Source of the DNA: a virus
Taxonomy: Duplodnaviria > Heunggongvirae > Uroviricota > Caudoviricetes
Length of the DNA stretch: 30,030 bases
Strand: one strand, 5' to 3'
Virus record (IMG/VR): IMGVR_UViG_2778261231_000012
Shown: piece after piece, positions 2,186-30,030 of the stretch
Position numbering within the stretch: the first letter of the stretch is position 1
Layout of the letters: each line of letters opens with the position of its first letter
The notes under the pieces: generated by a model
Told to the model about the DNA's origin: nothing
The model's database searches: none
The model's input: the letters and a program-made list of their open reading frames with translations, nothing else
Made by a program: the position numbers and the translations under genes

Positions 2186-2328
2186 CATTCGAATCCTACT
2201 TTGCTGATCATCTTCGTCTGCGATGGACTCGGTTACGCATCTATCGTCACCCGGGTTCATTTGCTACGGACTACCGAATTTTACGCAATTACATCAGCCG
2301 CTATAAACCATCAGGAGCAGAAGCATGA
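2182..2328 (+). CDS. small basic protein (48 aa), position-equivalent to DLP12 ylcG
   Basis: ATG overlaps the rusA stop (ATGA) and its stop overlaps the next gene's start (ATGA), i.e. translational coupling at both ends; translation [48 protein letters not shown]; below the ORF-track size cutoff. Confidence 0.5.
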
Positions 2329-3089
2329 ATCTCGAAAACACAGTGAAATACCACTTCGCGAAGTCAACGATGATTAGCGACGCTCCACGTGCAACCGCAT
2401 CTGACTCATTAACCGGCACTGACATTATGGCGGCGATCGGAATGACACAGAGCCGGGCTGATCTCGGGTTCAGTGCATTCCTCGGTAAGATGGATATCAG
2501 CGATTACGATCGCGAGCGAGCAATTGACCTGCTGACCAAATATGCAATTGAGCACTGCGATAAGGTTGCCGCCTTACGCAAGCTTGAGAGCGATGTTAAG
2601 CCAAAGGTAATGCAAGTTCTCGCAACTTTCGCCTTTGCTGATTACTCCCGGAGCGCCGCCAGTACCAGAACGTGCGACTGCTGCAATGGAAATAAGTTTG
2701 TCGAAGCTGAAGTAATGACGATGAAGCATATCGGACAGCCACACCTTAGCGAAAAAAGAGAGATGGTTAAGGTGCTTTGCCACAAATGCAAAGGGAAGGG
2801 TGCTCTGACCAACGCATGCCAGTGCAATGGCAAAGGAACAGTATTAGACAAAGAGAAAACTATTCTACAGCGCGGCGTTCCTGCATATAAAACCTGTACG
2901 CGCTGCAATGGGCGTGGTTATGCCAGATTGCTACCTGATAGCGTCCGTAAATACATCTGCGTAACGGTGATGGATATACCTGAAACCACGTGGCGCAGGT
3001 CTTACAAGGATTTTTTCGAAAGTCTGGTAGGTGAGTGCATCAAGCAGGAAGAGTACGCAAACCAGATGTTGAACAAAGTCACGCGATAG
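2325..3089 (+). CDS. putative late-gene antiterminator (Q-like) with DnaJ-type CxxCxGxG zinc-finger repeats
   Basis: 254-aa ORF with AGGAG SD; four Cys motifs CDCCNGNK, CHKCKGKG, CQCNGKG, CTRCNGRG; sits between the nin/rusA block and a promoter/terminator pair preceding the lysis cassette, the canonical Q position. Confidence 0.45.
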   Translation: MNLENTVKYHFAKSTMISDAPRATASDSLTGTDIMAAIGMTQSRADLGFSAFLGKMDISDYDRERAIDLLTKYAIEHCDKVAALRKLESDVKPKVMQVLATFAFADYSRSAASTRTCDCCNGNKFVEAEVMTMKHIGQPHLSEKREMVKVLCHKCKGKGALTNACQCNGKGTVLDKEKTILQRGVPAYKTCTRCNGRGYARLLPDSVRKYICVTVMDIPETTWRRSYKDFFESLVGECIKQEEYANQMLNKVTR

Positions 3090-4408: not shown

Positions 4409-4908
4409 AGCCGGGTGGCATCTGCATCATTGTGATTGTTGCGTTGGTAGGTTCGTTTCTCGCTGGCAGTGAGTGGACGAACCGCAGCTGGAAAATAAAG
4501 TGGGCTGACCGGGATAGCGCGGAATCTTCACAGGAAGCGAATGCACAGACCGCAGCTCGTATGATTGAACAAGGGCGAACAATCGCCCGGGATGAGGCCG
4601 TTAAAGATGCTCAAGCTCAAGCAGCGAGCGCTGCCGTTACTTCTGCTGGCCTGGCTACCACTGTTAAGCAGCTGCGCGCCGAAGCAACAAAACTCGCTAC
4701 CCACATGGACGCCGCAAAGCACACCGCAGATCTCGCCACTTCCGTCAGAAGCAAAACAGCCGGAGCCAACGCAGCAATGCTTGCCGACATGCTCGGAAGC
4801 CTTGCAGAAGCAGCTCGATATTATGCTGGACGATCTGACGAAAGCTACCGGGCAGGAATGACGTGTGAGCGGATTTACGAATCAGTGCGACTGTCGAATA
4901 ACCAATAG
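4405..4908 (+). CDS. Rz: i-spanin Rz
   Basis: GTG start overlapping the endolysin stop (GTGA); N-terminal TMD ICIIVIVALVGSFLAGS; Ala/Gln-rich coiled-coil-like periplasmic domain; contains Rz1 embedded in the +1 frame. Confidence 0.8.
   Translation: MKPGGICIIVIVALVGSFLAGSEWTNRSWKIKWADRDSAESSQEANAQTAARMIEQGRTIARDEAVKDAQAQAASAAVTSAGLATTVKQLRAEATKLATHMDAAKHTADLATSVRSKTAGANAAMLADMLGSLAEAARYYAGRSDESYRAGMTCERIYESVRLSNNQ
4592..4861 (+). CDS. Rz1: o-spanin Rz1 (lipoprotein) fully embedded in Rz
   Basis: Signal peptide with lipobox LSSC (LLLLAWLPLLSSC); proline-rich mature part; alternative start at ATG 4607. Confidence 0.75.
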   Translation: MRPLKMLKLKQRALPLLLLAWLPLLSSCAPKQQNSLPTWTPQSTPQISPLPSEAKQPEPTQQCLPTCSEALQKQLDIMLDDLTKATGQE

Positions 4909-4915
4909 GCGATTC

Positions 4916-5164
4916 ATGCTGCTAGTTTTCGTCCTCTTGTCGATATGGCTCTGTCGGCAACATGAGGAACGCCGCTGGCCTTCGGTCGGCTTTAATGTCT
5001 CATCGCTGATGCTCATCACCGAGCAACCGGCACAATTCCTGAATTTGAAGCTGATAATGGTGAGATTATCCCCGGTTATACCGGACTTATCGCCTATTCA
5101 GAATCACTGGATCACGGTGTGTTGCAACTCGACGACTAGCGGCATTACAGCAGGCATTCACTGA
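4916..5164 (+). CDS. possible small membrane protein (uncertain)
   Basis: ORF beginning MLLVFVLLSIWLC (one predicted TMD) right after Rz; no convincing SD; followed by the hairpin at 5183-5201. Confidence 0.2.
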   Translation: MLLVFVLLSIWLCRQHEERRWPSVGFNVSSLMLITEQPAQFLNLKLIMVRLSPVIPDLSPIQNHWITVCCNSTTSGITAGIH

Positions 5165-5182
5165 GTGCCTGTGATAATGCAA

Positions 5183-5201
5183 CAGCCCGTACAAAACGGG
5201 C
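5183..5201. terminator. hairpin between convergent genes (candidate bidirectional terminator)
   Basis: agcccgt-acaaa-acgggct perfect 7-bp stem between the stop of the + strand ORF (5164) and the stop of the - strand gene (5208). Confidence 0.4.
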
Positions 5202-5207
5202 TTGGAT

Positions 5208-5822
5208 TTATCTCTTTGTTGCGTTCATGGTCACATGGTAAACGAATTGGCTAAATTGGTTATCCCAGCGCCCATTATGATTAGCTGCAACTAATTGCAT
5301 TAACGCCTGCATTAACTTGCTGAACAGCAAGATTAACTTAAGTCTGTTTTTTGAACTGTCACTATCTAAGGAAACTTCTTCGGTTAATTGATTCTCGGCG
5401 TTAAAAATACCCAGTTTTGATTCTTCCATGCTGGGTTCCGTTGGATGCTGTTTAAAGTATTCAGTCAGAGTATCCTTCAGGCTCTGGATCCTTGAATCAG
5501 CAATGCTTTGTATTGATGGATTGTGTGCAAGGTCATTACGCATTGAGTTGATGGTTTTAAGTGATTTCATAAGTTCCGGGGGGATTCCCAGGTTTCCCGC
5601 CATGGATATTTTAGTATTACATTCGATTAAAAGTTTGTTTTTATCTCTTCCAAAGAGATCTTGGCAGTCACAGCATGCGCATATCCATGCTTCGACCATG
5701 CGCTCACAAAGTAGGTGAATGCGCAATGTAGTACCCACATCGTCATCGCTTTCCACTGCTCTCGCGAATAAAGATGGAAAATCAATCTCATGGTAATAGT
5801 CCATGAAAATCCTTGCATTCAT
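5208..5822 (-). CDS. hypothetical protein with HEPN-like R-N-x-x-A-H motif; candidate abortive-infection/defence moron in the lambda bor position
   Basis: 204-aa antisense ORF with GGAGG SD 4 nt before ATG; motif SMRNDLAHN at residues 94-101; locally A+T-rich DNA; transcribed against the late operon with a hairpin after its stop. Confidence 0.6.
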   Translation of the reverse strand: MNARIFMDYYHEIDFPSLFARAVESDDDVGTTLRIHLLCERMVEAWICACCDCQDLFGRDKNKLLIECNTKISMAGNLGIPPELMKSLKTINSMRNDLAHNPSIQSIADSRIQSLKDTLTEYFKQHPTEPSMEESKLGIFNAENQLTEEVSLDSDSSKNRLKLILLFSKLMQALMQLVAANHNGRWDNQFSQFVYHVTMNATKR

Positions 5823-5841
5823 AAATCCTCCAGGTAGCTAT

Positions 5842-6033
5842 ATGCAAATTGAAACAAAAGAGATGGTGATCTTTCTAAGAGATGATGGAATCTCCCTTCA
5901 GTATCCCGATGGTCAATGCGCTGGATATGGGATAGATGGGAATATGCTGATTTTTATGGGACAGAGTTGCGAACTGTTCCCAACTAAAATCATTTTGCAC
6001 GATCAGCGCACTACGAACTTTACCCACAAATAG
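5842..6033 (+). CDS. possible small ORF (63 aa from ATG) in the divergent intergenic region; doubtful
   Basis: Track ORF 5803-6033; weak SD; no recognisable motif; may simply be promoter/leader DNA for the flanking divergent genes. Confidence 0.15.
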   Translation: MQIETKEMVIFLRDDGISLQYPDGQCAGYGIDGNMLIFMGQSCELFPTKIILHDQRTTNFTHK

Positions 6034-6121
6034 TCAGGTAATGAATCCTGATATAAAGACAGGTTGATAAATCAGTCTTCTACGCGCATCGCACGCGCAC
6101 ATCAAAGAGAGTCTTTCAGTA

Positions 6122-6188
6122 GTGAGCCTGGGTGATGCCGTTAGGTTGCGTTTACCTCTCGGGCGGCATTGCCGTGCGACAGGCTCAC
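6122..6188 (+). promoter_or_regulatory. long nested stem-loop in the 5' leader of the 6208 gene
   Basis: gtgagcctg (6122-6130) pairs with caggctcac (6180-6188); inner atgccg (6135-6140) with cggcat (6164-6169); innermost aggt/acct; ends 5 nt before the AAGGA SD. Confidence 0.4.
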
Positions 6189-6207
6189 GCCTAAAAGGAA
6201 ATATTCC

Positions 6208-6936
6208 ATGAGTAACAAAATCATTACGCTATCTGGCGCTGCTAATGAAGTGCTTTATGCGCTGTTTTTCCGTGGCGCGTTGCTGTCTGGTGATCTGCCT
6301 TCTAAATCTGGCACAGCCGAATTGCGCGAGCTTGGTTTTGCTGAAACCAGACACACAGCAACTGAATACCAGAAAGAAAATCACTTTACCTTTCTGACAT
6401 CAGAAGGGCAGAAATTTGCCGTTGAACACCTGGTCAATACGCGTTTTGGTGAGCAGCAATATTGCGCTTCGATGACGCTTGGCGTTGAGATTGATACCTC
6501 TGCTGCACAAAAGGCAATCGACGAGCTGGACCAGCGCATTCGTGACACCGTCTCCTTCGAACTTATTCGCAATGGAGTGTCATTCATCAAGGACGCCGCT
6601 ATCGCAAATGGTGCTATCCACGCAGCGGCAATCGAAACACCTCAGCCGGTGACCAATATCTACAACATCAGCCTTGGTATCCAGCGTGATGAGCCAGCGC
6701 AGAACAAGGTAACCGTCAGTGCCGATAAGTTCAAAGTTAAACCTGGTGTTGATACCAACATTGAAACGTTGATCGAAAACGCGCTGAAAAACGCTGCTGA
6801 ATGTGCGGCGCTGGATGTCACAAAGCAAATGGCAGCAGACAAGAAAGCGATGGATGAACTGGCTTCCTATGTCCGCACGGCCATCATGATGGAATGTTTC
6901 CCCGGTGGTGTTATCTGGCAGCAGTGCCGTCGATAG
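6208..6936 (+). CDS. hypothetical protein (242 aa), unknown function, immediately upstream of cos
   Basis: ORF with AAGGA SD 7 nt upstream of ATG 6208; no motif I can recognise. Confidence 0.65.
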   Translation: MSNKIITLSGAANEVLYALFFRGALLSGDLPSKSGTAELRELGFAETRHTATEYQKENHFTFLTSEGQKFAVEHLVNTRFGEQQYCASMTLGVEIDTSAAQKAIDELDQRIRDTVSFELIRNGVSFIKDAAIANGAIHAAAIETPQPVTNIYNISLGIQRDEPAQNKVTVSADKFKVKPGVDTNIETLIENALKNAAECAALDVTKQMAADKKAMDELASYVRTAIMMECFPGGVIWQQCRR

Positions 6937-6949
6937 TGTGCAATTGATA

Positions 6950-7181
6950 ATTATTATCGTTTGCGGGTCCTTTCCGGCGATCCGCCTTGTTACGGGGCGG
7001 CGTCCGCGCAGATTCTCGCTATTTATGAAAATTTTCTGGTTTATGCCATTTCCGTTCTTCTTCTTGTTTACTCATTGTTTTTGTTAAAAACGTCCTCTCT
7101 CCAGAAAGGAAATGCTGAGCAAGGAAAACGGAAGTTTACCGTTGATTGTTTCCTTTCTCTGTTTTTTGCCAGGAGTAAGCC
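6950..7181 (+). other. cos site (cosQ-cosN-cosB) of lambda type; predicted 12-nt cohesive end GGGCGGCGTCCG at 6995-7006
   Basis: Strong resemblance to the recalled lambda left end: ACG/GGGCGGCG(T)CC(G)CGC...TTCTCGCTATTTATGAAAATTTTC.GGTTTA...TTTCCGTTCTTCTTC...TTTCCTTTCTCTGTTTTT, immediately upstream of Nu1. Confidence 0.8.
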
Positions 7182-7727
7182 ATGGAGGTTAACAAAAAAC
7201 GCTTATCCGAAATTTTCGGGGTAAGCGTCCGAACGATTCAGAACTGGCAGGAGCAAGGTATGCCGGTTGTCCGCGGTGGTGGCAAAGGTAATGAGGTTCT
7301 CTTTGAATCTGCTGCTGCAATCGAATGGTACAGTGCGCGCGATGCAGCTATAGAAAATGAAAAGTTGCGGAAGGAAGTTGAAGATCTCCGTATCGCTTCT
7401 GAGTCCGATCTTCAACCTGGCACGATTGAATATGAGCGACACCGACTTACGCGAGCTCAGGCTGACGCTCAGGAATTAAAAAATGCAAAAGAGTCCGCTG
7501 AAGTGGTGGAGACCGCATTCTGCACGTTCGTGCTGTCGCGGGTAGCCGGAGAAATCGCCAGCATTCTCGATGGAATACCTCTGTCGGTTCAGCGGCGCTT
7601 CCCGGAGCTGGAGAACCGACATATTGATTTCCTCAAGAAGGACATCATTAAGGCCATGAACAAGGCAGCTGCGCTGGATGAAATGATACCGGGGTTGCTG
7701 AGTGAATATATCGAACAGTCAGGTTAA
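7182..7727 (+). CDS. nu1: terminase small subunit Nu1
   Basis: Close match over its full length to recalled lambda Nu1 (MEVNKK...IRTIQNWQEQGMPV.RGGGKGNEV...[10 protein letters not shown]). Confidence 0.95.
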   Translation: MEVNKKRLSEIFGVSVRTIQNWQEQGMPVVRGGGKGNEVLFESAAAIEWYSARDAAIENEKLRKEVEDLRIASESDLQPGTIEYERHRLTRAQADAQELKNAKESAEVVETAFCTFVLSRVAGEIASILDGIPLSVQRRFPELENRHIDFLKKDIIKAMNKAAALDEMIPGLLSEYIEQSG

Positions 7728-22457: not shown

Positions 22458-25400
22458 ATGGCTACTTCCACTCCGATTAGAGGCCGCAAGGGCGGCAGTT
22501 CCAGTTCCCGTACCCCTACAGAACAGCCAGACGATCTCCAGTCCGTAGCGAAGGCCAAGATTCTTGTTGCGCTGGGAGAAGGGGAATTTGCGGGGCAGTT
22601 AACGGCTAAAGATATCTATCTTGACGGCACGCCACTGGAGAATGCAGACGGATCGCAAAACTTCAGCGGCGTGGCATGGGAGTTCCGCCCGGGGACTCAG
22701 GCTCAAAAGTATATTCAGGGCATCCCCGGTACCGAGAATGAAATCAGCGTAGGTACCGAAGTTTCAAGCGCTACGGCCTGGACGCATACCTTTACCAACA
22801 CCCAGCTGTCAGCCATTCGTCTGCGCCTCAAATGGCCATCACTGTTTAAACAGGAGGACGACGGCGATCTGGTCGGCTATTCGATTAATTACGCTATCGA
22901 TCTGCAGACAGATGGCGGTACCTGGCAGACCGTGCTTAATACCAGCGTCACCGGGAAAACCACGTCAGGCTACGAACGCAGCCACCGTATCGACTTACCG
23001 CAGGCGGGAAGCACCTGGACGGTACGTCTTCGTAAGCTCACCGCAGATGCGAACAGTGCGAAAATTGGCGACACGATGACGCTGCAGAGCTACACGGAGG
23101 TAATCGATGCCAAACTGCGCTATCCAAACACCGCGCTGCTGTACATTGAATTCGATTCAAGCCAGTTTAACGGCTCCATCCCGCAAATTTCCTGTGAACC
23201 GCGCGGGCGCGTTATCCGCGTGCCGGATACTTACGATCCGGAAACCCGGACCTATAGCGGTACCTGGACGGGGGCGTTTAAGTGGGCATGGACGGACAAT
23301 CCGGCGTGGATTTTTTACGATCTGGTGGTGAGCGACCGTTTTGGACTTGGCGACCGCCTGACGGCGGCAAATATTGATAAATGGACGCTTTACCAGGTCG
23401 CACAATATTGCGATCAGCTGGTTCCTGATGGTAAAGGCGGTAGCGGCACCGAGCCTCGCTATACCTGTAACGTGTACGTGCAGGAGAGGAATGACGCCTA
23501 TACCGTGTTACGTGATTTTGCGGCGATATTCCGTGGCATGACGTACTGGGGCGGCAATCAAATCGTTGCACTGGCAGATATGCCCCGCGATGTTGATTAC
23601 AGCTACACCCGCGCTAACGTGGTTGACGGCCGCTTTACCTATTCTGGCAGCACCACTAAAAACCGCTATACCACCGCGCTGGTTTCCTGGTCAGATCCGG
23701 GTAATGCCTACGCAGATGCGATGGAGCCGGTTTTTGAACAGGAGCTCGTCGCTCGCTTTGGCACAAACCAGCTCGAGATGACAGCCATTGGCTGTACCCG
23801 GCAGTCTGAGGCAAACCGTAAGGGGCGCTGGGGGATTCAGACCAATAACAAGGATCGCATCGTATCGTTTGATGTTGGTCTGGACGGCAACATTCCACAG
23901 CCTGGTTATATTATCGCGGTTGCCGATGAGCTGTTATCCGGAAAGGTGATGGGAGGGCGTATCAGCGCGGTTAATGGTCGCGTTATCACGCTTGATCGTG
24001 ATTCCGCTGCCGTTGCCGGAAGCCGTCTTATGGTTAACCTGCCGTCTGGCGCATCGCAGAGCAGGACGATTCAGAGCGTAAACGGCCGGGCTGTCACCGT
24101 GACCACGGCATACAGCGAAACACCGGCAGTCGAATCGGTATGGATTGTCGAATCCGACGAGCTTTATGCACAGCAATATCGTGTTATCAGCGTCTCTGAT
24201 AATAACGACGGCACGTTTTCTATTACTGGTGCTTTTCACGATCCGGATAAGTATGCCCGTATCGATACCGGCGCCATCGTCGACCAGCGGCCAATAAGTG
24301 TAATTCCGCCCGGTAATCAGTCCCCGCCAGCTAATATCGCGATCAGTTCGTTTTCTGTCGTTCAGCAGAATATCAGCGTTGAGACCATGCGCGTCAGCTG
24401 GGACCAGGCGAAAAATGCTATCGCGTATGAGGCACAGTGGCGTCGCAATGACGGGAACTGGGTGAATGTGCCGCGCAGCTCCACCACGTCATTCGATGTT
24501 CCGGGGATTTATGCAGGACGCTACCTGGTTCGCGTGCGTGCCATCAATGCCGCCGAAATTTCATCTGGGTGGGGCTATTCAGAAGAGAAAACGTTGACGG
24601 GTAAAGTGGGAAACCCACCGAAGCCGGTTGGCTTCATCGCTTCTGAAAACGTGGTATTCGGTATTGAGCTGAACTGGGGATTCCCGGCGAATACCGAAGA
24701 CACGCTGAAGACGGAAATTCAGTACAGCCTGACCGGTACTGAAGACGATGCCATGCTGCTGGCCGATGTGCCTTACCCGCAGCGCAAATATCAGCAGATG
24801 GGCCTTAAGGCTGGGCAGATTTTCTGGTACCGCGCGCAGCTGGTGGACCGCAGCGGCAACGAATCAGGGTACACAGAATGGGTGCGAGGACAGGCCAGCA
24901 TCGATGTTTCCGATATCACAGATGTGATTCTGGAGGAAATTAAAGACTCCGATACGTTCAAAGACCTGATCGAGAACGCGGTGGACAGCAATGAAAAAAT
25001 TGCTGGCATGGCTGACGACATCAAACAGGCCAACGATGAACTTGAGCTCCAGGCGCAGGAAATCGCAAAAAACGCGCAGGACATTGGGCAGGTTCAGACC
25101 AGTGTTAATGAGCTTTCGAGCACGGTCGGTGATGTATCTTCCTCTCTATCAGATCTTGAGCAGACCGTCGCAACGGCTGATACCGCGCTGGGCCAGCGAA
25201 TCGACAGCATCAGCGTGTCTATGGACGGCATGACGGGCGGGGTTAAGAACTCAGCCATTGCCATTATCCAGAACGGACTGGCGCAGGTGGCCACACGCAA
25301 AAGGCTTTCCGCGACGGTCGCCGGTAACAGTGCGCAGCTGGATCGTCTCGACGAGGTGATCGTCAGTGAGAAGGAAGCCACAGCACGTTCATTGCTGAGC

Positions 25401-26009
25401 CTGCGGACGGACGTCAACGGCAACAAGGCATCCATCAACAGCCTGAATCAGACGCTCTCCGACTATCAGCAGGCCACCGCCACGCAGATAAACGGCATCA
25501 CGGCGACCGTGAACGGGCATACCTCCGCCATCACCACTAACGCTCAGGCTATAGCCAACGTTAATGGCGAACTCAGCGCGATGTATAACATCAAGGTGGG
25601 GGTGTCCAGTAACGGGCAGTATTACGCTGCCGGGATGGGTATTGGGGTTCAAAATACACCCTCCGGCATGCAGTCACAGGTAATCTTCCTGGCAGACCGT
25701 TTCGCCGTGACTACTATGGTCGGCGGGACTGTAACACTGCCGTTCGTTATCCAGAATGGCCAGGCCATTATCAGGGATACAGTCATTGGCGACGGGACCA
25801 TAAGCAATGCAAAAATTGGCAATTACATCCAGTCGAACAATTATGTTGCCGGCTCTGTTGGCTGGAAACTGGATAAGTCCGGGACGTTTGAGAACTACGG
25901 TTCGACAGCTGGGGAGGGAGCCATGAAGCAGACCAACCAGACAATCAGCGTCAAGGATGGCAACAACGTTCTGAGAGTGCAGGTTGGCCGATTAACGGGG
26001 GTGTTCTGA
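22458..26009 (+). CDS. J: tip attachment / host specificity protein gpJ (central tail fibre)
   Basis: 1183 aa; lambda J-like length, position and internal motifs (YTCNVYV, FN3-like repeats); C-terminal about 300 aa look divergent from lambda J by recall. Confidence 0.95.
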   Translation: MATSTPIRGRKGGSSSSRTPTEQPDDLQSVAKAKILVALGEGEFAGQLTAKDIYLDGTPLENADGSQNFSGVAWEFRPGTQAQKYIQGIPGTENEISVGTEVSSATAWTHTFTNTQLSAIRLRLKWPSLFKQEDDGDLVGYSINYAIDLQTDGGTWQTVLNTSVTGKTTSGYERSHRIDLPQAGSTWTVRLRKLTADANSAKIGDTMTLQSYTEVIDAKLRYPNTALLYIEFDSSQFNGSIPQISCEPRGRVIRVPDTYDPETRTYSGTWTGAFKWAWTDNPAWIFYDLVVSDRFGLGDRLTAANIDKWTLYQVAQYCDQLVPDGKGGSGTEPRYTCNVYVQERNDAYTVLRDFAAIFRGMTYWGGNQIVALADMPRDVDYSYTRANVVDGRFTYSGSTTKNRYTTALVSWSDPGNAYADAMEPVFEQELVARFGTNQLEMTAIGCTRQSEANRKGRWGIQTNNKDRIVSFDVGLDGNIPQPGYIIAVADELLSGKVMGGRISAVNGRVITLDRDSAAVAGSRLMVNLPSGASQSRTIQSVNGRAVTVTTAYSETPAVESVWIVESDELYAQQYRVISVSDNNDGTFSITGAFHDPDKYARIDTGAIVDQRPISVIPPGNQSPPANIAISSFSVVQQNISVETMRVSWDQAKNAIAYEAQWRRNDGNWVNVPRSSTTSFDVPGIYAGRYLVRVRAINAAEISSGWGYSEEKTLTGKVGNPPKPVGFIASENVVFGIELNWGFPANTEDTLKTEIQYSLTGTEDDAMLLADVPYPQRKYQQMGLKAGQIFWYRAQLVDRSGNESGYTEWVRGQASIDVSDITDVILEEIKDSDTFKDLIENAVDSNEKIAGMADDIKQANDELELQAQEIAKNAQDIGQVQTSVNELSSTVGDVSSSLSDLEQTVATADTALGQRIDSISVSMDGMTGGVKNSAIAIIQNGLAQVATRKRLSATVAGNSAQLDRLDEVIVSEKEATARSLLSLRTDVNGNKASINSLNQTLSDYQQATATQINGITATVNGHTSAITTNAQAIANVNGELSAMYNIKVGVSSNGQYYAAGMGIGVQNTPSGMQSQVIFLADRFAVTTMVGGTVTLPFVIQNGQAIIRDTVIGDGTISNAKIGNYIQSNNYVAGSVGWKLDKSGTFENYGSTAGEGAMKQTNQTISVKDGNNVLRVQVGRLTGVF

Positions 26010-27376: not shown

Positions 27377-27392
27377 ATTGCCTGGAGAAAAT

Positions 27393-28226
27393 ATGCTTTA
27401 TAACACCGGCACCATCGCCATTAATGGAAATACCGCCACCGGGACGGGTACAAACTGGACGGCACCGGCCAGCCAGGTCCGCGCTGGCCAGACGATTATC
27501 GTGATGTCTAACCCGGTGCAGCTGTTTCATATTTCATCCGTGAACAGCGCCACGTCAATGACGGTTACGCCTGCCGCTTCCCCGGCGCTGAGCGGCCAGA
27601 AATACGCCATTCTGGTGTCAGACATTATCTCCGTGGACGGACTGGCCCAGGCAATGTCGCAGCTCATCAAAGAGTATGACGAGAACATTGGCGCGTGGGA
27701 GACGTTCGCCACTACCTCAGCAAACCAGACCATCACCGTTACCATCAACGGGACCACCGTAACCATCCCTGGCATCGGTAAACTGGCACAGAAAGGGAGC
27801 AACGGTGCGGTTACTGTCGCAGACGGCGGAACCGGCGCAACGAATGCCGCAGACGCTCGCACAAACCTTGGTTTGGGAACAGCGGCGCAGCGAAATGTGG
27901 GAACGGGTGCAAATCAGATCCCAGATATGAATTCATTCACATCTCAAAAGTCATTGACCGGATGGCAAAAATTGCCTGGTGGATTGATTTTACAGTGGGG
28001 GCTGACAACAACCTCTGGGTCAGAGCAAAACGCACTGGTAACATTTCCTGTGGCATTTCCGGGATCAATACTGATGGAATATACGACATATGCAAACATC
28101 TCCGGCGACCCAGCAACCGGATCAACATACATTGGCCAGGTCAGAACAACGAGTAATACACAAATGTATGTTCGCAATCTTGGGCCGACTAATGCTCAAT
28201 ATAACTGGCTAGTAATCGGATATTAA
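27393..28226 (+). CDS. side tail fibre protein (constant N-terminal part plus currently expressed variable C-terminal cassette Sv)
   Basis: ATG 27393 with GGAG SD; N-terminus [19 protein letters not shown] and motif [21 protein letters not shown] typical of phage tail fibres; gix-like crossover site lies inside the gene at 27856-27881. Confidence 0.85.
27856..27881. repeat. left crossover site of the invertible segment (gix/hix-like, 12+2+12 bp)
   Basis: ctcgcacAAACC-TT-GGTTTgggaaca; inner half is a perfect inverted copy of 29397-29408. Confidence 0.7.
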
Positions 28227-28236
28227 GGGAGGGGGT

Positions 28237-28641
28237 ATGTATTACGCTAAATCTACAGGTGGATTTTATACGCCTGAAATTAACGGAAAAAATATTCCTG
28301 ATGATGCTATTGAAATCACGGAAGATGAATACTTGGGATTATTGCAGGCTCAGGCTGACGGGAAAATAATTACCTCAGATGATAAGGGGAATCCGGTTGC
28401 AATCGATCCGCCGCCATTGACGCAAGAAGAACTTGTTGCGCAGGCTGAACGCGAAAAGGCTTCTTTGTTAAAGCAAGCAACGAATTCGATTGCGCCGTTA
28501 CAGGATGCTTCCGACCTTGGTATTGCGACAGATGAAGAAATTAAACAGCTTACTGACTGGAAAAAATATCGGGTGCAGCTGATGCGTGTTGATACATCAA
28601 AAGCACCCGCTTTCGAGTGGCCTACATCTCCGGCTGATTAG
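28237..28641 (+). CDS. tail fibre assembly protein (Tfa)
   Basis: 134 aa; GGGAGGGGG SD; C-terminus [23 protein letters not shown] matches the recalled Tfa family signature. Confidence 0.85.
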
Positions 28642-29056
28642 GCCAAGTAATATCCGGGGCCGCTGAAGTATCGACGGCTTCAATATTATCCAGGTAATCC
28701 AGCCACGCGTTATATCTCGCTTTATCCGTGTCTTTTAAGCGGCCCATAGCCGCTTTCCCTGGCCACTGATTGCTGTTTATGTAGTCGTTTGCAGCATCAG
28801 TTAGGCTCTGCTTTTCAACCTCCGCTTGCGCCACAATTTCTTCATGGGTCGGAGGGGGAATGTCTTCCCATTCAGGTAGTCCATTTGTTCCAGCTACTCT
28901 TTTTTTCCCTTCGGGAGGCTCTCCCGTAAATTCGCTGTATAACTGTTCTGTTACCTCAACTGCATCCTCTGGCCAACCGATGCCATTGATATAATCATCT
29001 TTAAGCTCAAGCGGGAAAAAGCTGTTGTGTTTAGCGCTATAAAAATATGTGTTCAC
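28622..29056 (-). CDS. alternative tail fibre assembly protein (Tfa')
   Basis: Minus-strand ORF with C-terminus [24 protein letters not shown]; likely GTG start at 29056 ([14 protein letters not shown], parallel to the + strand Tfa start [11 protein letters not shown]) preceded by GGGAG SD; track start 29119 is an extension. Confidence 0.7.
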
Positions 29057-29057
29057 G

Positions 29058-29405
29058 TTAGCTCCCAATAGCAAAAAAGTATGCATTGAAACCGCCCGCA
29101 CCGGACATGTACGCCCCAAATCCTGCGCCGTTAACGGTGTTATTCACCACTGCCAGAGTTGGCGATGGGGTTCCACCTGAAAAGTTAATATCAGCAAATG
29201 TAAGCTGAATATTGCTCACCACACTGGGAAAATTGATAGGGAATGGAACTGAAATCTGTGTTTGCCCCACAGGAAAACCCGCTTTTCCCCACTGTAAGAT
29301 TTTCCCACCTGGCAATTTTTGCCACCCACTAGCGTTGGTAAAGCTGGACATATCAGGTATCTGTCCGGCACCGGCTCCTACGTTCTTCGTTGCTGCTGTT
29401 CCCAA
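29058..29405 (-). CDS. alternative tail-fibre C-terminal cassette (Sv'), silent in this orientation
   Basis: Minus-strand ORF whose N-terminal part ([39 protein letters not shown]) is paralogous to the + strand fibre segment after the crossover site; no own start; in-frame fusion to the fibre N-terminal part would result from inversion. Confidence 0.7.
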   Translation of the reverse strand: MGTAATKNVGAGAGQIPDMSSFTNASGWQKLPGGKILQWGKAGFPVGQTQISVPFPINFPSVVSNIQLTFADINFSGGTPSPTLAVVNNTVNGAGFGAYMSGAGGFNAYFFAIGS

Positions 29406-29422
29406 ACCAACCTTTCAAATAT
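29397..29422. repeat. right crossover site of the invertible segment
   Basis: tgttcccAAACC-AA-CCTTTcaaatat; inner half identical (inverted) to the left site; about 60 bp upstream of the invertase gene. Confidence 0.7.
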
Positions 29423-29449
29423 TTTTCTGAATCAGGTGATATTTCGCCT

Positions 29450-29476
29450 CTTCTCCTGTTTTTACAACAGGAGAAG
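29450..29476 (+). promoter_or_regulatory. perfect 11-bp hairpin sequestering the invertase Shine-Dalgarno
   Basis: cttctcctgtt-tttac-aacaggagaag; 3' arm contains AGGAG located 8 nt upstream of the invertase ATG. Confidence 0.45.
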
Positions 29477-29481
29477 CACTC

Positions 29482-30030
29482 ATGATTTACGGTTATGCCC
29501 GAGTATCAACAAACCACCAGGACACTGAATTGCAACTAACGGCGCTCAAGTCAGCGGGTTGTGAGAAAATTTTTGAAGAGCATGCCAGCGGGAGGAAATC
29601 GAATCGGCCGGTTCTAAAACGGCTGATCGCCACTATGCAGCCGGGGGATGAACTGGTGGTCTGGAAGCTGGACAGGATAGGCCGCAACGTTCTGCATGCG
29701 CTGTTGATGTTCCAGCAGTTACAGGAAAAGGGTATCAACTTCCGCAGTATTACCGATGGCGTGGATCTCAAAACAGCCAGCGGCCGCTATAACTTTCGTA
29801 ACATCCTTTCCGCAGCACAATATGAATCTGATCTTAATAGCGAACGTACCTTAGCAGGGCTGGCCGTAGCCAGGGCAAAAGGGCGAGTTGGTGGTCGCAG
29901 GCCTAAGTTCACGGATGAGCAATGGCGGGAAATGGGGGAGCGGATGGCAACCGGTGAATCACGACAAAGCGTATCAAAAACGTATGGAGTAGGGCTCTCA
30001 ACTCTGTATAAAAAGTTTCCAGCTAGCTGA
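29482..30030 (+). CDS. site-specific DNA invertase, serine recombinase of the Hin/Gin/Pin/Cin family
   Basis: 182 aa; N-terminal catalytic motif YARVSTNHQD, VVWKLDRIGRN, C-terminal HTH ending GLSTLYKKFPAS as in recalled Hin/Pin sequences. Confidence 0.9.
   Translation: MIYGYARVSTNHQDTELQLTALKSAGCEKIFEEHASGRKSNRPVLKRLIATMQPGDELVVWKLDRIGRNVLHALLMFQQLQEKGINFRSITDGVDLKTASGRYNFRNILSAAQYESDLNSERTLAGLAVARAKGRVGGRRPKFTDEQWREMGERMATGESRQSVSKTYGVGLSTLYKKFPAS

Follow-up and report, generated by a model that had tools for sequence, protein, structure and literature searches.

A copy of the phi80 Tai/Ati defence and counter-defence cassette beside a separate late gene in the lysis-to-cos interval of a lambdoid prophage

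What occupies the interval between the lysis genes and the cohesive-end site of a lambdoid prophage, and does it behave as one unit? The question arises for IMG/VR record IMGVR_UViG_2778261231_000012, a stretch of 30,030 nt from a lambdoid Escherichia coli prophage (hereafter the window). An earlier note, made from the letters of this DNA, had described positions 5183–6936 as a single, compositionally distinct moron island composed of an antisense HEPN-like gene, a 385-bp divergent intergenic region and a gene for a protein of 242 amino acids (aa). By sequence identity, positions 5139–6077 are the Tai/Ati defence and counter-defence cassette of phage phi80 (taiEcA and atiEcA), a cassette that is already known, and the 242-aa gene stands apart from it. 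As an explanation of the whole interval, a Tai/Ati cassette with a presumed J-triggered HEPN function, followed by a separate 242-aa gene, accounts best for the data, and we give it a probability of roughly 85%.

Between 5139 and 7005 the window aligned with the right end of phi80 at 97.4% identity, reaching the phi80 virion end, and the cassette DNA alone was 99.9% identical. At the protein level, identity to phi80 amounted to 203/204 residues for Tai (orf63), 63/63 for Ati (orf64) and 238/242 for the 242-aa protein (orf66). The tai gene (5208–5822, – strand) encodes a 204-aa protein with a predicted HEPN fold, the orthologue of TaiEcA, and is preceded by a strong Shine-Dalgarno motif, GGAGG, at a distance of 4 nt from the ATG; the antisense reading frame of the earlier note stands as a gene. 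Its partner ati (5842–6033, + strand) encodes the 63-aa orthologue of the counter-defence protein AtiEcA and starts 19 nt from the tai start; the ribosome-binding sites of both genes (CCTCCAGG and CCTGGAGG) lie in this head-to-head spacer (5823–5841). The supposed divergent intergenic region does measure exactly 385 bp, but rather than being empty it holds ati and a structured leader at 6078–6207. In phi80, Ati is annotated as 76 aa from a start corresponding to 5803 (75/76 identical); the conserved start is M14, at 5842, and the 63-aa form is supported by homologues of 35–89% identity and by RefSeq.

Gene order and strands likewise followed phi80, with Q, the lysis genes, ati, orf66, Nu1 and the terminase gene all on the + strand and tai on the – strand, the layout termed a ‘noncontiguous operon’ by the authors who described it (PMC11364771). 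Both loci share an antisense tai within the late operon, upstream of the packaging genes and with orf66 as a neighbour. The window differs from phi80 in lacking rha between Rz and tai, in its mEp237-like lysis cassette, and in a Nu1/terminase pair unlike that of phi80.

The function of the pair has been established genetically in phi80. Lysogens blocked HK106, HK544 and HK578 only when taiEcA was present, and its deletion abolished the protection; escape mutations in rival phages mapped to the C-terminal region of J (PMC11364771). In infections exposed to Tai, phage DNA entered and replicated and the cells lysed, releasing non-infectious capsids that were tailless in electron microscopy, so that protection operated at the population level (PMC11364771). 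Deletion of atiEcA led to autoimmunity and a lower phi80 titre, which was rescued in trans or by insertion sequences in orf63, and HK106 given atiEcA became resistant (PMC11364771). Tai was seen by western blot in the uninduced lysogen and was reduced by Q expression, the late operon containing ati being Q-dependent, while single deletions of orf62, orf65 or orf66 had no effect in the phi80 assay (PMC11364771). The suggestion that the slot between Rz and cos receives acquired defence cargo was thus well founded, the cassette being a proven defence and counter-defence pair of phi80 (PMC11364771).

Transferred to the window, constitutive Tai made from the strand opposite the late operon would protect the lysogen population rather than the infected cell. 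Tai would act through the C-terminal part of the rival phage's central tail fibre J, with the result that no tails are formed. Upon induction, Q would drive the late + strand transcript through the region; this antiterminated transcription, antisense to tai, would lower Tai and express Ati, and Ati would neutralise Tai and allow the prophage to build its own tails.

No domain was assigned to Tai by He et al. (Nat Commun, 2024), the words ‘HEPN’ and ‘domain’ being absent from their text (PMC11364771). An AlphaFold2 model, built on an alignment of 15 homologues (mean predicted local distance difference test, pLDDT, 85.2; predicted template modelling score, pTM, 0.83), is an all-alpha, up-down helical bundle with an Rx4-6H motif on a conserved helix. 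Foldseek matched this model to HepS with a probability of 1.0, and a profile hidden Markov model (HMM) of the Tai family matched HepS with an E-value of 8.7e-4 (22 bits) over ~50 residues that cover the catalytic helix only, aligning R95 and H100 of Tai with R100 and H105 of HepS. As modelled, Tai is a HEPN-fold protein whose closest solved relative is HepS, and fold model, profile match and conserved Rx4H motif all bear out the HEPN-like label that the earlier note had given to the antisense gene. The motif in Tai reads R95-N96-D-L-A99-H100, and R95-N96-x-x-A99-H100 was invariant in 15 close homologues. Homologues numbered 19 close and ~190 distant ones; from the 190 relatives that the family profile recovered among 1.84 billion cluster representatives, 144 representatives at 50% identity could be aligned at the motif, and these retained R95 in 142, N96 in 143 and H100 in 143 cases. 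Searches of Pfam and NCBIfam with Tai gave no match, PADLOC gave weak CARF_HEPN matches (E 0.004 and 0.012), and the PHROGs matched were families of unknown function; HepS was absent among the 150 best representatives of the Tai profile search. At the C-terminus of Tai, H182, W186, N188 and Q192 are invariant, yet pLDDT falls below 50 for residues 189–204, a combination that by analogy parallels the termini of HepS, which fold onto the J peptide.

HepS, from the Salmonella prophage Gifsy-1 (Sargen et al., Nature 2026, PMC13043305; PDB 9oij and 9oik), is a constitutive, tetrameric anticodon nuclease whose trigger is a peptide of the J tail tip. It binds nascent J at a 32-residue peptide (lambda J 902–933) with F924 as the key residue, and this binding has also been proposed to block J trimerisation; the H105A mutation abolishes defence, and DNA replication is little affected by HepS (PMC13043305). 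Gifsy-1, -2 and -3 themselves escape triggering by means of a Phe-to-Ile ‘silent’ J allele (PMC13043305). Like Tai, HepS is a single-domain, constitutive prophage HEPN protein of ~200 aa that acts on the siphovirus J tail-tip protein late in infection with DNA replication intact, and the two share the aligned Rx4H helix KI..A..LG.P..L.K.L...N..RN..AH. Nuclease activity, in contrast, has been demonstrated for HepS only. Together, the HEPN fold, the near-invariant Rx4H motif and the relationship to HepS favour J capture with J-triggered RNA cleavage over a purely steric action: by analogy, Tai is probably also an RNase, its substrate probably tRNA, that captures nascent J as HepS does. Tai and HepS may then belong to one superfamily of J-triggered tRNA nucleases. 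A further prophage defence keyed to a tail protein and paired with self-immunity, Tha, is cited as an analogue by both papers, but senses another tail protein and is a non-specific RNase (PMC13043305).

The cassette itself is a re-discovery, having been genetically characterised in phi80 in 2024. What is new here is the link between two separate literatures, one on Tai as a steric blocker without an assigned domain and the other on HepS as a HEPN anticodon nuclease, for two proteins alike in fold, motif and size, in target and in their location on prophages. The HepS paper (PMC13043305) mentions neither phi80 nor TaiEcA nor the first author of the TaiEcA paper, neither paper cites the other's system, and a literature search found no paper naming both HepS and ‘tail assembly inhibition’. 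If Tai is a J-triggered nuclease, a single widespread defence class would show itself both as tail assembly inhibition and as tRNA-cleaving abortive infection, with Ati as its first dedicated protein inhibitor.

The prophage's own J gene (22458–26009, 1183 aa) bears on this proposal. Its codons 1087–1111 (25716–25790, + strand) are the counterpart of the lambda J peptide that triggers HepS. Over its last 308 residues, window J is 89.6% identical to the J protein of the Tai-sensitive phage HK106, and residues 1087–1111 account for 11 of the 32 differences. Ile1104 of window J occupies the position of lambda F924, where Phe is kept in the J proteins of HK106, HK97, mEp213, phi80 and the Nissle prophage. 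By analogy with the Gifsy prophages, the present one may avoid self-targeting twice, via Ati and via an F-to-I ‘silent’ J allele.

Several observations weigh against the picture drawn so far. It is precisely in the presumed trigger segment that window J departs from the Tai-sensitive type. The similarity between Tai and HepS is weak (14–16% identity, with the short profile match given above), making HepS a distant relative and probably not a member of the same family at the sequence level; moreover, Tai is accompanied by an antidote, Ati, while HepS lacks such a partner and depends on a silent J allele. All functional data stem from the phi80 copy. A consensus scan found no sigma-70 promoter for tai (1 site vs. 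4.1 expected by chance), nor did an alignment of five cassettes upstream of tai contain a convincing conserved –35/–10 pair. Finally, He et al. proposed that Tai inhibits tail assembly directly; they described neither a motif mutant nor any toxicity or nuclease activity, and in the presence of Tai capsids were made, phage DNA was replicated and cells were lysed (PMC11364771).

The last points lead to the strongest alternative, namely the model as published, in which Tai would do no more than bind J stoichiometrically and block it, with the HEPN fold as a scaffold and an Rx4H motif that takes no part in catalysis. Tailless but otherwise complete capsids, normal phage DNA replication and normal lysis speak for this model, and even HepS has been proposed to block J trimerisation. 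However, R, N and H of the motif persist in 142–143 of the 144 representatives, all less than 50% identical to each other, which is hard to explain without selection on an active site, and in HepS the loss of the motif histidine abolishes defence. We hence regard a purely steric action as possible but rather unlikely, and a J-triggered nuclease as the better candidate for Tai.

How far does the unit containing tai and ati extend? The G+C content was 0.405 in tai and 0.403 in ati, compared with 0.525 in the whole window. The 615-bp frame at tai had a z-score of –3.1, reached by only 0.3% of frames, and is the lowest-G+C patch of the 30 kb, in keeping with the visibly A+T-rich 5.2–6.1 kb of the earlier note. 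The 242-aa gene had an ordinary G+C content of 0.492 (0.51 at third codon positions), similar to Nu1 (0.500) and terL (0.495). Synonymous codon usage, scored as a codon likelihood against the structural genes, gave z-scores of –1.5 for tai (inside the spread of holin and Rz), +0.25 for ati and +0.9 for the 242-aa gene. Of the two compositional checks that the earlier note had proposed, sliding G+C and codon usage, the first singled out tai and ati and the second no gene at all: the compositional signal is real, is confined to ~0.9 kb and lies in base composition, not in codon choice.

Homology told the same limits. In blastn comparisons with relatives, breakpoints fell at 5139 and 6078 instead of at 5183 and 6936, and homology with the tai-ati-free relatives mEp237, mEp213 and E. 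coli SZQ1 ended in the lysis cassette and restarted at 6078. The segment is a three-part mosaic, not one unit, and only 5139–6077 (~940 bp) forms a mobile, compositionally distinct element. Absence from collinear relatives combined with deviant base composition, as expected of a moron, held for 5139–6077 and not for the 242-aa gene; with regard to a moron's own promoter, terminator and expression from the prophage, there are strong hairpins 3′ of tai, no consensus promoter, and lysogen expression known from the phi80 copy only. As the 242-aa gene lacks both linkage to the pair and deviant G+C, tai-ati constitutes the moron and the 242-aa gene is separate.

Among 5426 complete E. coli genomes, only 80 had the 939-bp cassette at an identity of at least 99.8%, most of them phi80-derived laboratory strains and Nissle 1917 derivatives. 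Nissle 1917 has an identical copy, located there in front of a DUF1441-type small terminase gene. Beyond these, the tai-ati pair retained a fixed 19-nt gap in seven loci belonging to three phage kinds and two slots, even where identity had dropped to 48% for Tai and 40% for Ati, as read from tblastn coordinates (L001, L002, L006, L009, L010, L013 and L011) and a DNA alignment. Distant tai genes (48–75% identity) thereby kept both the divergent ati and the head-to-head spacer, and of the seven distinct contexts inspected, six had ati beside tai. The phages that harbour the distant pairs have packaging modules of DUF2280, Terminase_2/HNH or other types; one pair lies between tail genes and an Arc/Ant region, and no 242-aa gene occurs near them (loci L009–L013).

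The slot itself is variable among related lambdoid prophages, as the earlier note had surmised: mEp237 and SZQ1 carry two small + strand genes in it, mEp213 others, phi80 additionally rha, and lambda bor and lambdap78. In lambda, bor, lambdap78 and lambdap79 are antisense accessory genes in the same spanin-to-cos slot and are expressed from the prophage; however, these genes and their functions are unrelated (Bor is an outer-membrane lipoprotein), and no homologue of the 242-aa gene is found there. Salmonella prophages (L020/L021, 3152–3704) have, in front of their 242-aa gene, a 64-aa gene with a match to the Pfam family ‘Sequestin’ and an antisense 104-aa gene, again variable cargo with an antisense member.

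The 242-aa gene (6208–6936, + strand), whose reading frame lies where the earlier note had placed it, corresponds to phi80 orf66, is named ‘Fur-regulated protein’ by PGAP and is similar to gp59 of N15/phiKO2. Its product had 658 homologues and belongs to phrog_17079, with N-terminal matches to phrog_4365 and phrog_16910. The N-terminal domain (residues 1–~85) is widespread, occurring in mEp237, mEp213, phiKO2 and Kuttervirus phages; N15/phiKO2 gp59, mEp237_062 and mEp213_076 share an N-terminal domain of ~80 residues (61–83% identity) and a position before the genome end or packaging genes, while their C-terminal halves differ from that of the 242-aa protein. In tai-free prophages of E. coli, Citrobacter and Salmonella, the gene precedes terminases of the Nu1 (lambda), DUF1441 and HNH/Terminase_4 types. 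Judged from these sequence comparisons, it is a separate and widespread accessory gene of the late operon, situated before the packaging genes and not part of the cassette. Its inclusion in a distinct island does not hold, given its ordinary G+C and codon usage and its conservation at this position; composition like that of the flanking genes and a conserved location were, for the earlier note itself, what would speak against an island.

Residues ~116–151 of the 242-aa protein (6553–6660) resemble J. The Pfam family Phage_Tail_Tip matched them with 23.4 bits (curated cut-off, 22 bits; profile positions 70–106), rising to 30 bits (E 5e-7) in 224-aa variants, and comparison with window J gave a BLASTP E-value of 3e-5 and, with hhalign, a P-value of 0.0015 and 36% identity over 61 columns at a probability of only 16%. 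Residues ~116–137 (SFELIRNGVSFIKDAAIANGAI; PFVVKNGEVFIKEANIAGGSI in the 224-aa variants) align with ‘LPFVIQNGQTFIRASFIQDGTI’ of J, equivalent to lambda J 914–933 and located inside the 32-residue peptide that activates HepS. In this alignment NGVSFIKDAAI of the 242-aa protein faces NGQTFIRASFI of J, placing F126 at the position equivalent to F924, and N122, G123, F126 and I127 were invariant in 24 homologues. One tentative interpretation of this resemblance, which we consider doubtful, is that the protein mimics the trigger epitope of the J tail tip. Such a mimic, encoded on the late strand shortly before the structural genes of the late transcript, could act as a decoy on sensors of the HepS/Tai type before J is made, or as a dominant-negative J fragment against rivals. 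Mimicry is weakened by the shortness of the similarity, by a shallow family alignment (81% mean identity) and by the lack of a phenotype of the phi80 orf66 deletion (PMC11364771). The AlphaFold2 model of the protein was poor (pLDDT 37, pTM 0.21), and a profile search of PDB sequences gave no match. The J-like epitope in this common late protein is a candidate phage defence against tail-tip sensors that can be tested directly.

The J-like segment, in that it spans the trigger epitope, also lends something to the idea that 5183–6936 is one moron island after all, with three cooperating genes and the 242-aa protein as a third Tai component (a J-like decoy or adaptor), the more so as the genes are adjacent in phi80, Nissle 1917 and the window. 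This arrangement is improbable and largely refuted because the 242-aa gene and tai-ati fail to co-occur: the former is found without the latter in SZQ1 and in Salmonella and Citrobacter prophages, and the latter without the former in the distant loci named above. Homology breakpoints and G+C divide the two as well, and deletion of orf66 in phi80 caused no titre defect.

Cargo of another kind would be a lysogenic-conversion or virulence factor, such as a Bor-like surface protein or a toxin, instead of an anti-phage defence. Lambda bor occupies the same slot, and phi80 lysogens show T4 resistance and P1 interference to which genes have not been assigned. Tai, however, has neither signal peptide nor lipobox and is predicted to be a cytoplasmic, helical HEPN protein, and the phi80 tai/ati phenotype is anti-phage; for tai and ati this very improbable view is refuted. 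The weakest alternative, that chance, or a local feature of structure or regulation in DNA close to cos, accounts for the low G+C and that the antisense reading frame is no gene, can draw on the A+T-rich non-coding DNA next to cos (G+C 0.429 at 6937–7181) and on the unremarkable codon usage of tai, but is refuted by homology (close and distant) and the published western blot, to which the strong ribosome-binding site, the confident fold and relatives with the same flanks that lack the segment may be added.

The Tai/Ati cassette is bordered by structured DNA. Two tandem stable hairpins (5142–5203) between the lysis region and the tai 3′ end, the second followed by a U-rich tract on the + strand, had minimum free energies of –35.9 kcal/mol (z = –5.0) on the + and –31.4 kcal/mol (z = –4.0) on the – strand, and as predicted structures they likely act as an insulator or terminate transcription in both directions. 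A 40-bp element (5141–5180) encloses the first hairpin and recurs at 100% identity in Klebsiella phages, in ~24 other E. coli genomes and in one Elizabethkingia phage record. In the two contexts that were inspected, a DUF2560 gene of the post-lysis region directly preceded the element and variable cargo followed; its appearance is that of a terminator or a conserved boundary between modules. Directly 3′ of the ati stop, a small hairpin (TCAGG-N8-CCTGA, 6034–6051) consists of invariant columns in five aligned cassettes; its fold is weak (–7.9 kcal/mol, z = –2.1) and terminator-like on the – strand.

Upstream of the 242-aa gene, a structured leader of ~130 nt (6078–6207, + strand) forms a long hairpin in which UCUUU pairs with AAAGG of the Shine-Dalgarno region. 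RNAalifold predicted 32 pairs, three of them with compensatory changes, and blastn breakpoints fell at the leader's first position, 6078, in three of the compared loci (L003, L004 and L005). The leader precedes 242-aa-type genes in mEp237, mEp213 and SZQ1, and a second copy in phi80 (L001, 3350–3487) precedes rha; the two phi80 copies flank the rha-tai-ati block as a 78%-identical direct repeat. A recombination linker and a translational control element are both possible roles. An Rfam search of 4700–7400 with E-values up to 1 gave no match. Phi80 orf65, a 100-aa antisense frame over the leader and the orf66 start (6072–6384 of the window, – strand), is probably no gene, as the frame is open for 51 aa here.

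Separated by 9 nt from the preceding stop codon of the 242-aa gene and by 5 nt from the following cosQ, a Fur-box-like palindrome (TGATAATTATTATCG, 6945–6959) has one mismatch over the 14 specified positions of the 7-1-7 consensus TGATAATnATTATCA. It was the sole match in the window, with 0 expected in shuffled sequences, and the equivalent place in lambda is occupied by a perfect copy (TGATAATCATTATCA). The site overlaps a hexamer pair that resembles a promoter directed into cos and Nu1. The name ‘Fur-regulated protein’, which PGAP applies to the 242-aa family and the phi80 record to orf64, is no functional assignment; our guess is that such names stem from the Fur-box-like site, perhaps via Fur-titration clones. 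Further downstream follow the cosQ heptamer GGGTCCT (6965–6971, + strand) and a cosN-like cohesive-end site (GGGCGGCGTCCG, 6995–7006, + strand); the phi80 virion end maps to 7005/7006 of the window.

On the + strand, the window runs from the antiterminator gene Q (2325–3089; Pfam Antiterm, E 1.6e-43) through holin, lysozyme and a DUF2514 Rz-like spanin gene ending at 4908 to the region studied here, and continues with Nu1 (7182–7727, + strand), terL for the large terminase, and head and tail genes. An Rz1-type outer-membrane spanin gene (4565–4861, + strand) with the lipobox LPLLSSC lies in the +1 frame within the Rz-like gene and completes the lysis cassette. The closest genome match, NZ_LT883142.1, aligned in two pieces that overlap by 8 bp: ~172 bp of that genome (L002, 6634–6807) are missing from the window at ~5026–5033, a deletion that shortens a small annotated open reading frame between spanin and cassette, the rest being near-identical. 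A 99-aa reading frame at 4865–5164 was not counted as part of the cassette region, as it overlaps the Rz end, has a weak PHROG match and is cut by this indel.

At the far end of the window, a tail-fibre gene with a Gp53-like C-terminus (27378–28226) precedes a pair of oppositely oriented tail-fibre assembly genes (28237–28641, + strand; 28622–29119, – strand), after which comes a resolvase/invertase gene (29482–30030). Positions 27378–30030 look like an invertible host-range switch of the Gin/Cin type. The second low-G+C patch of the window (~27.8–29.1 kb) coincides with this tail-fibre/invertase region.

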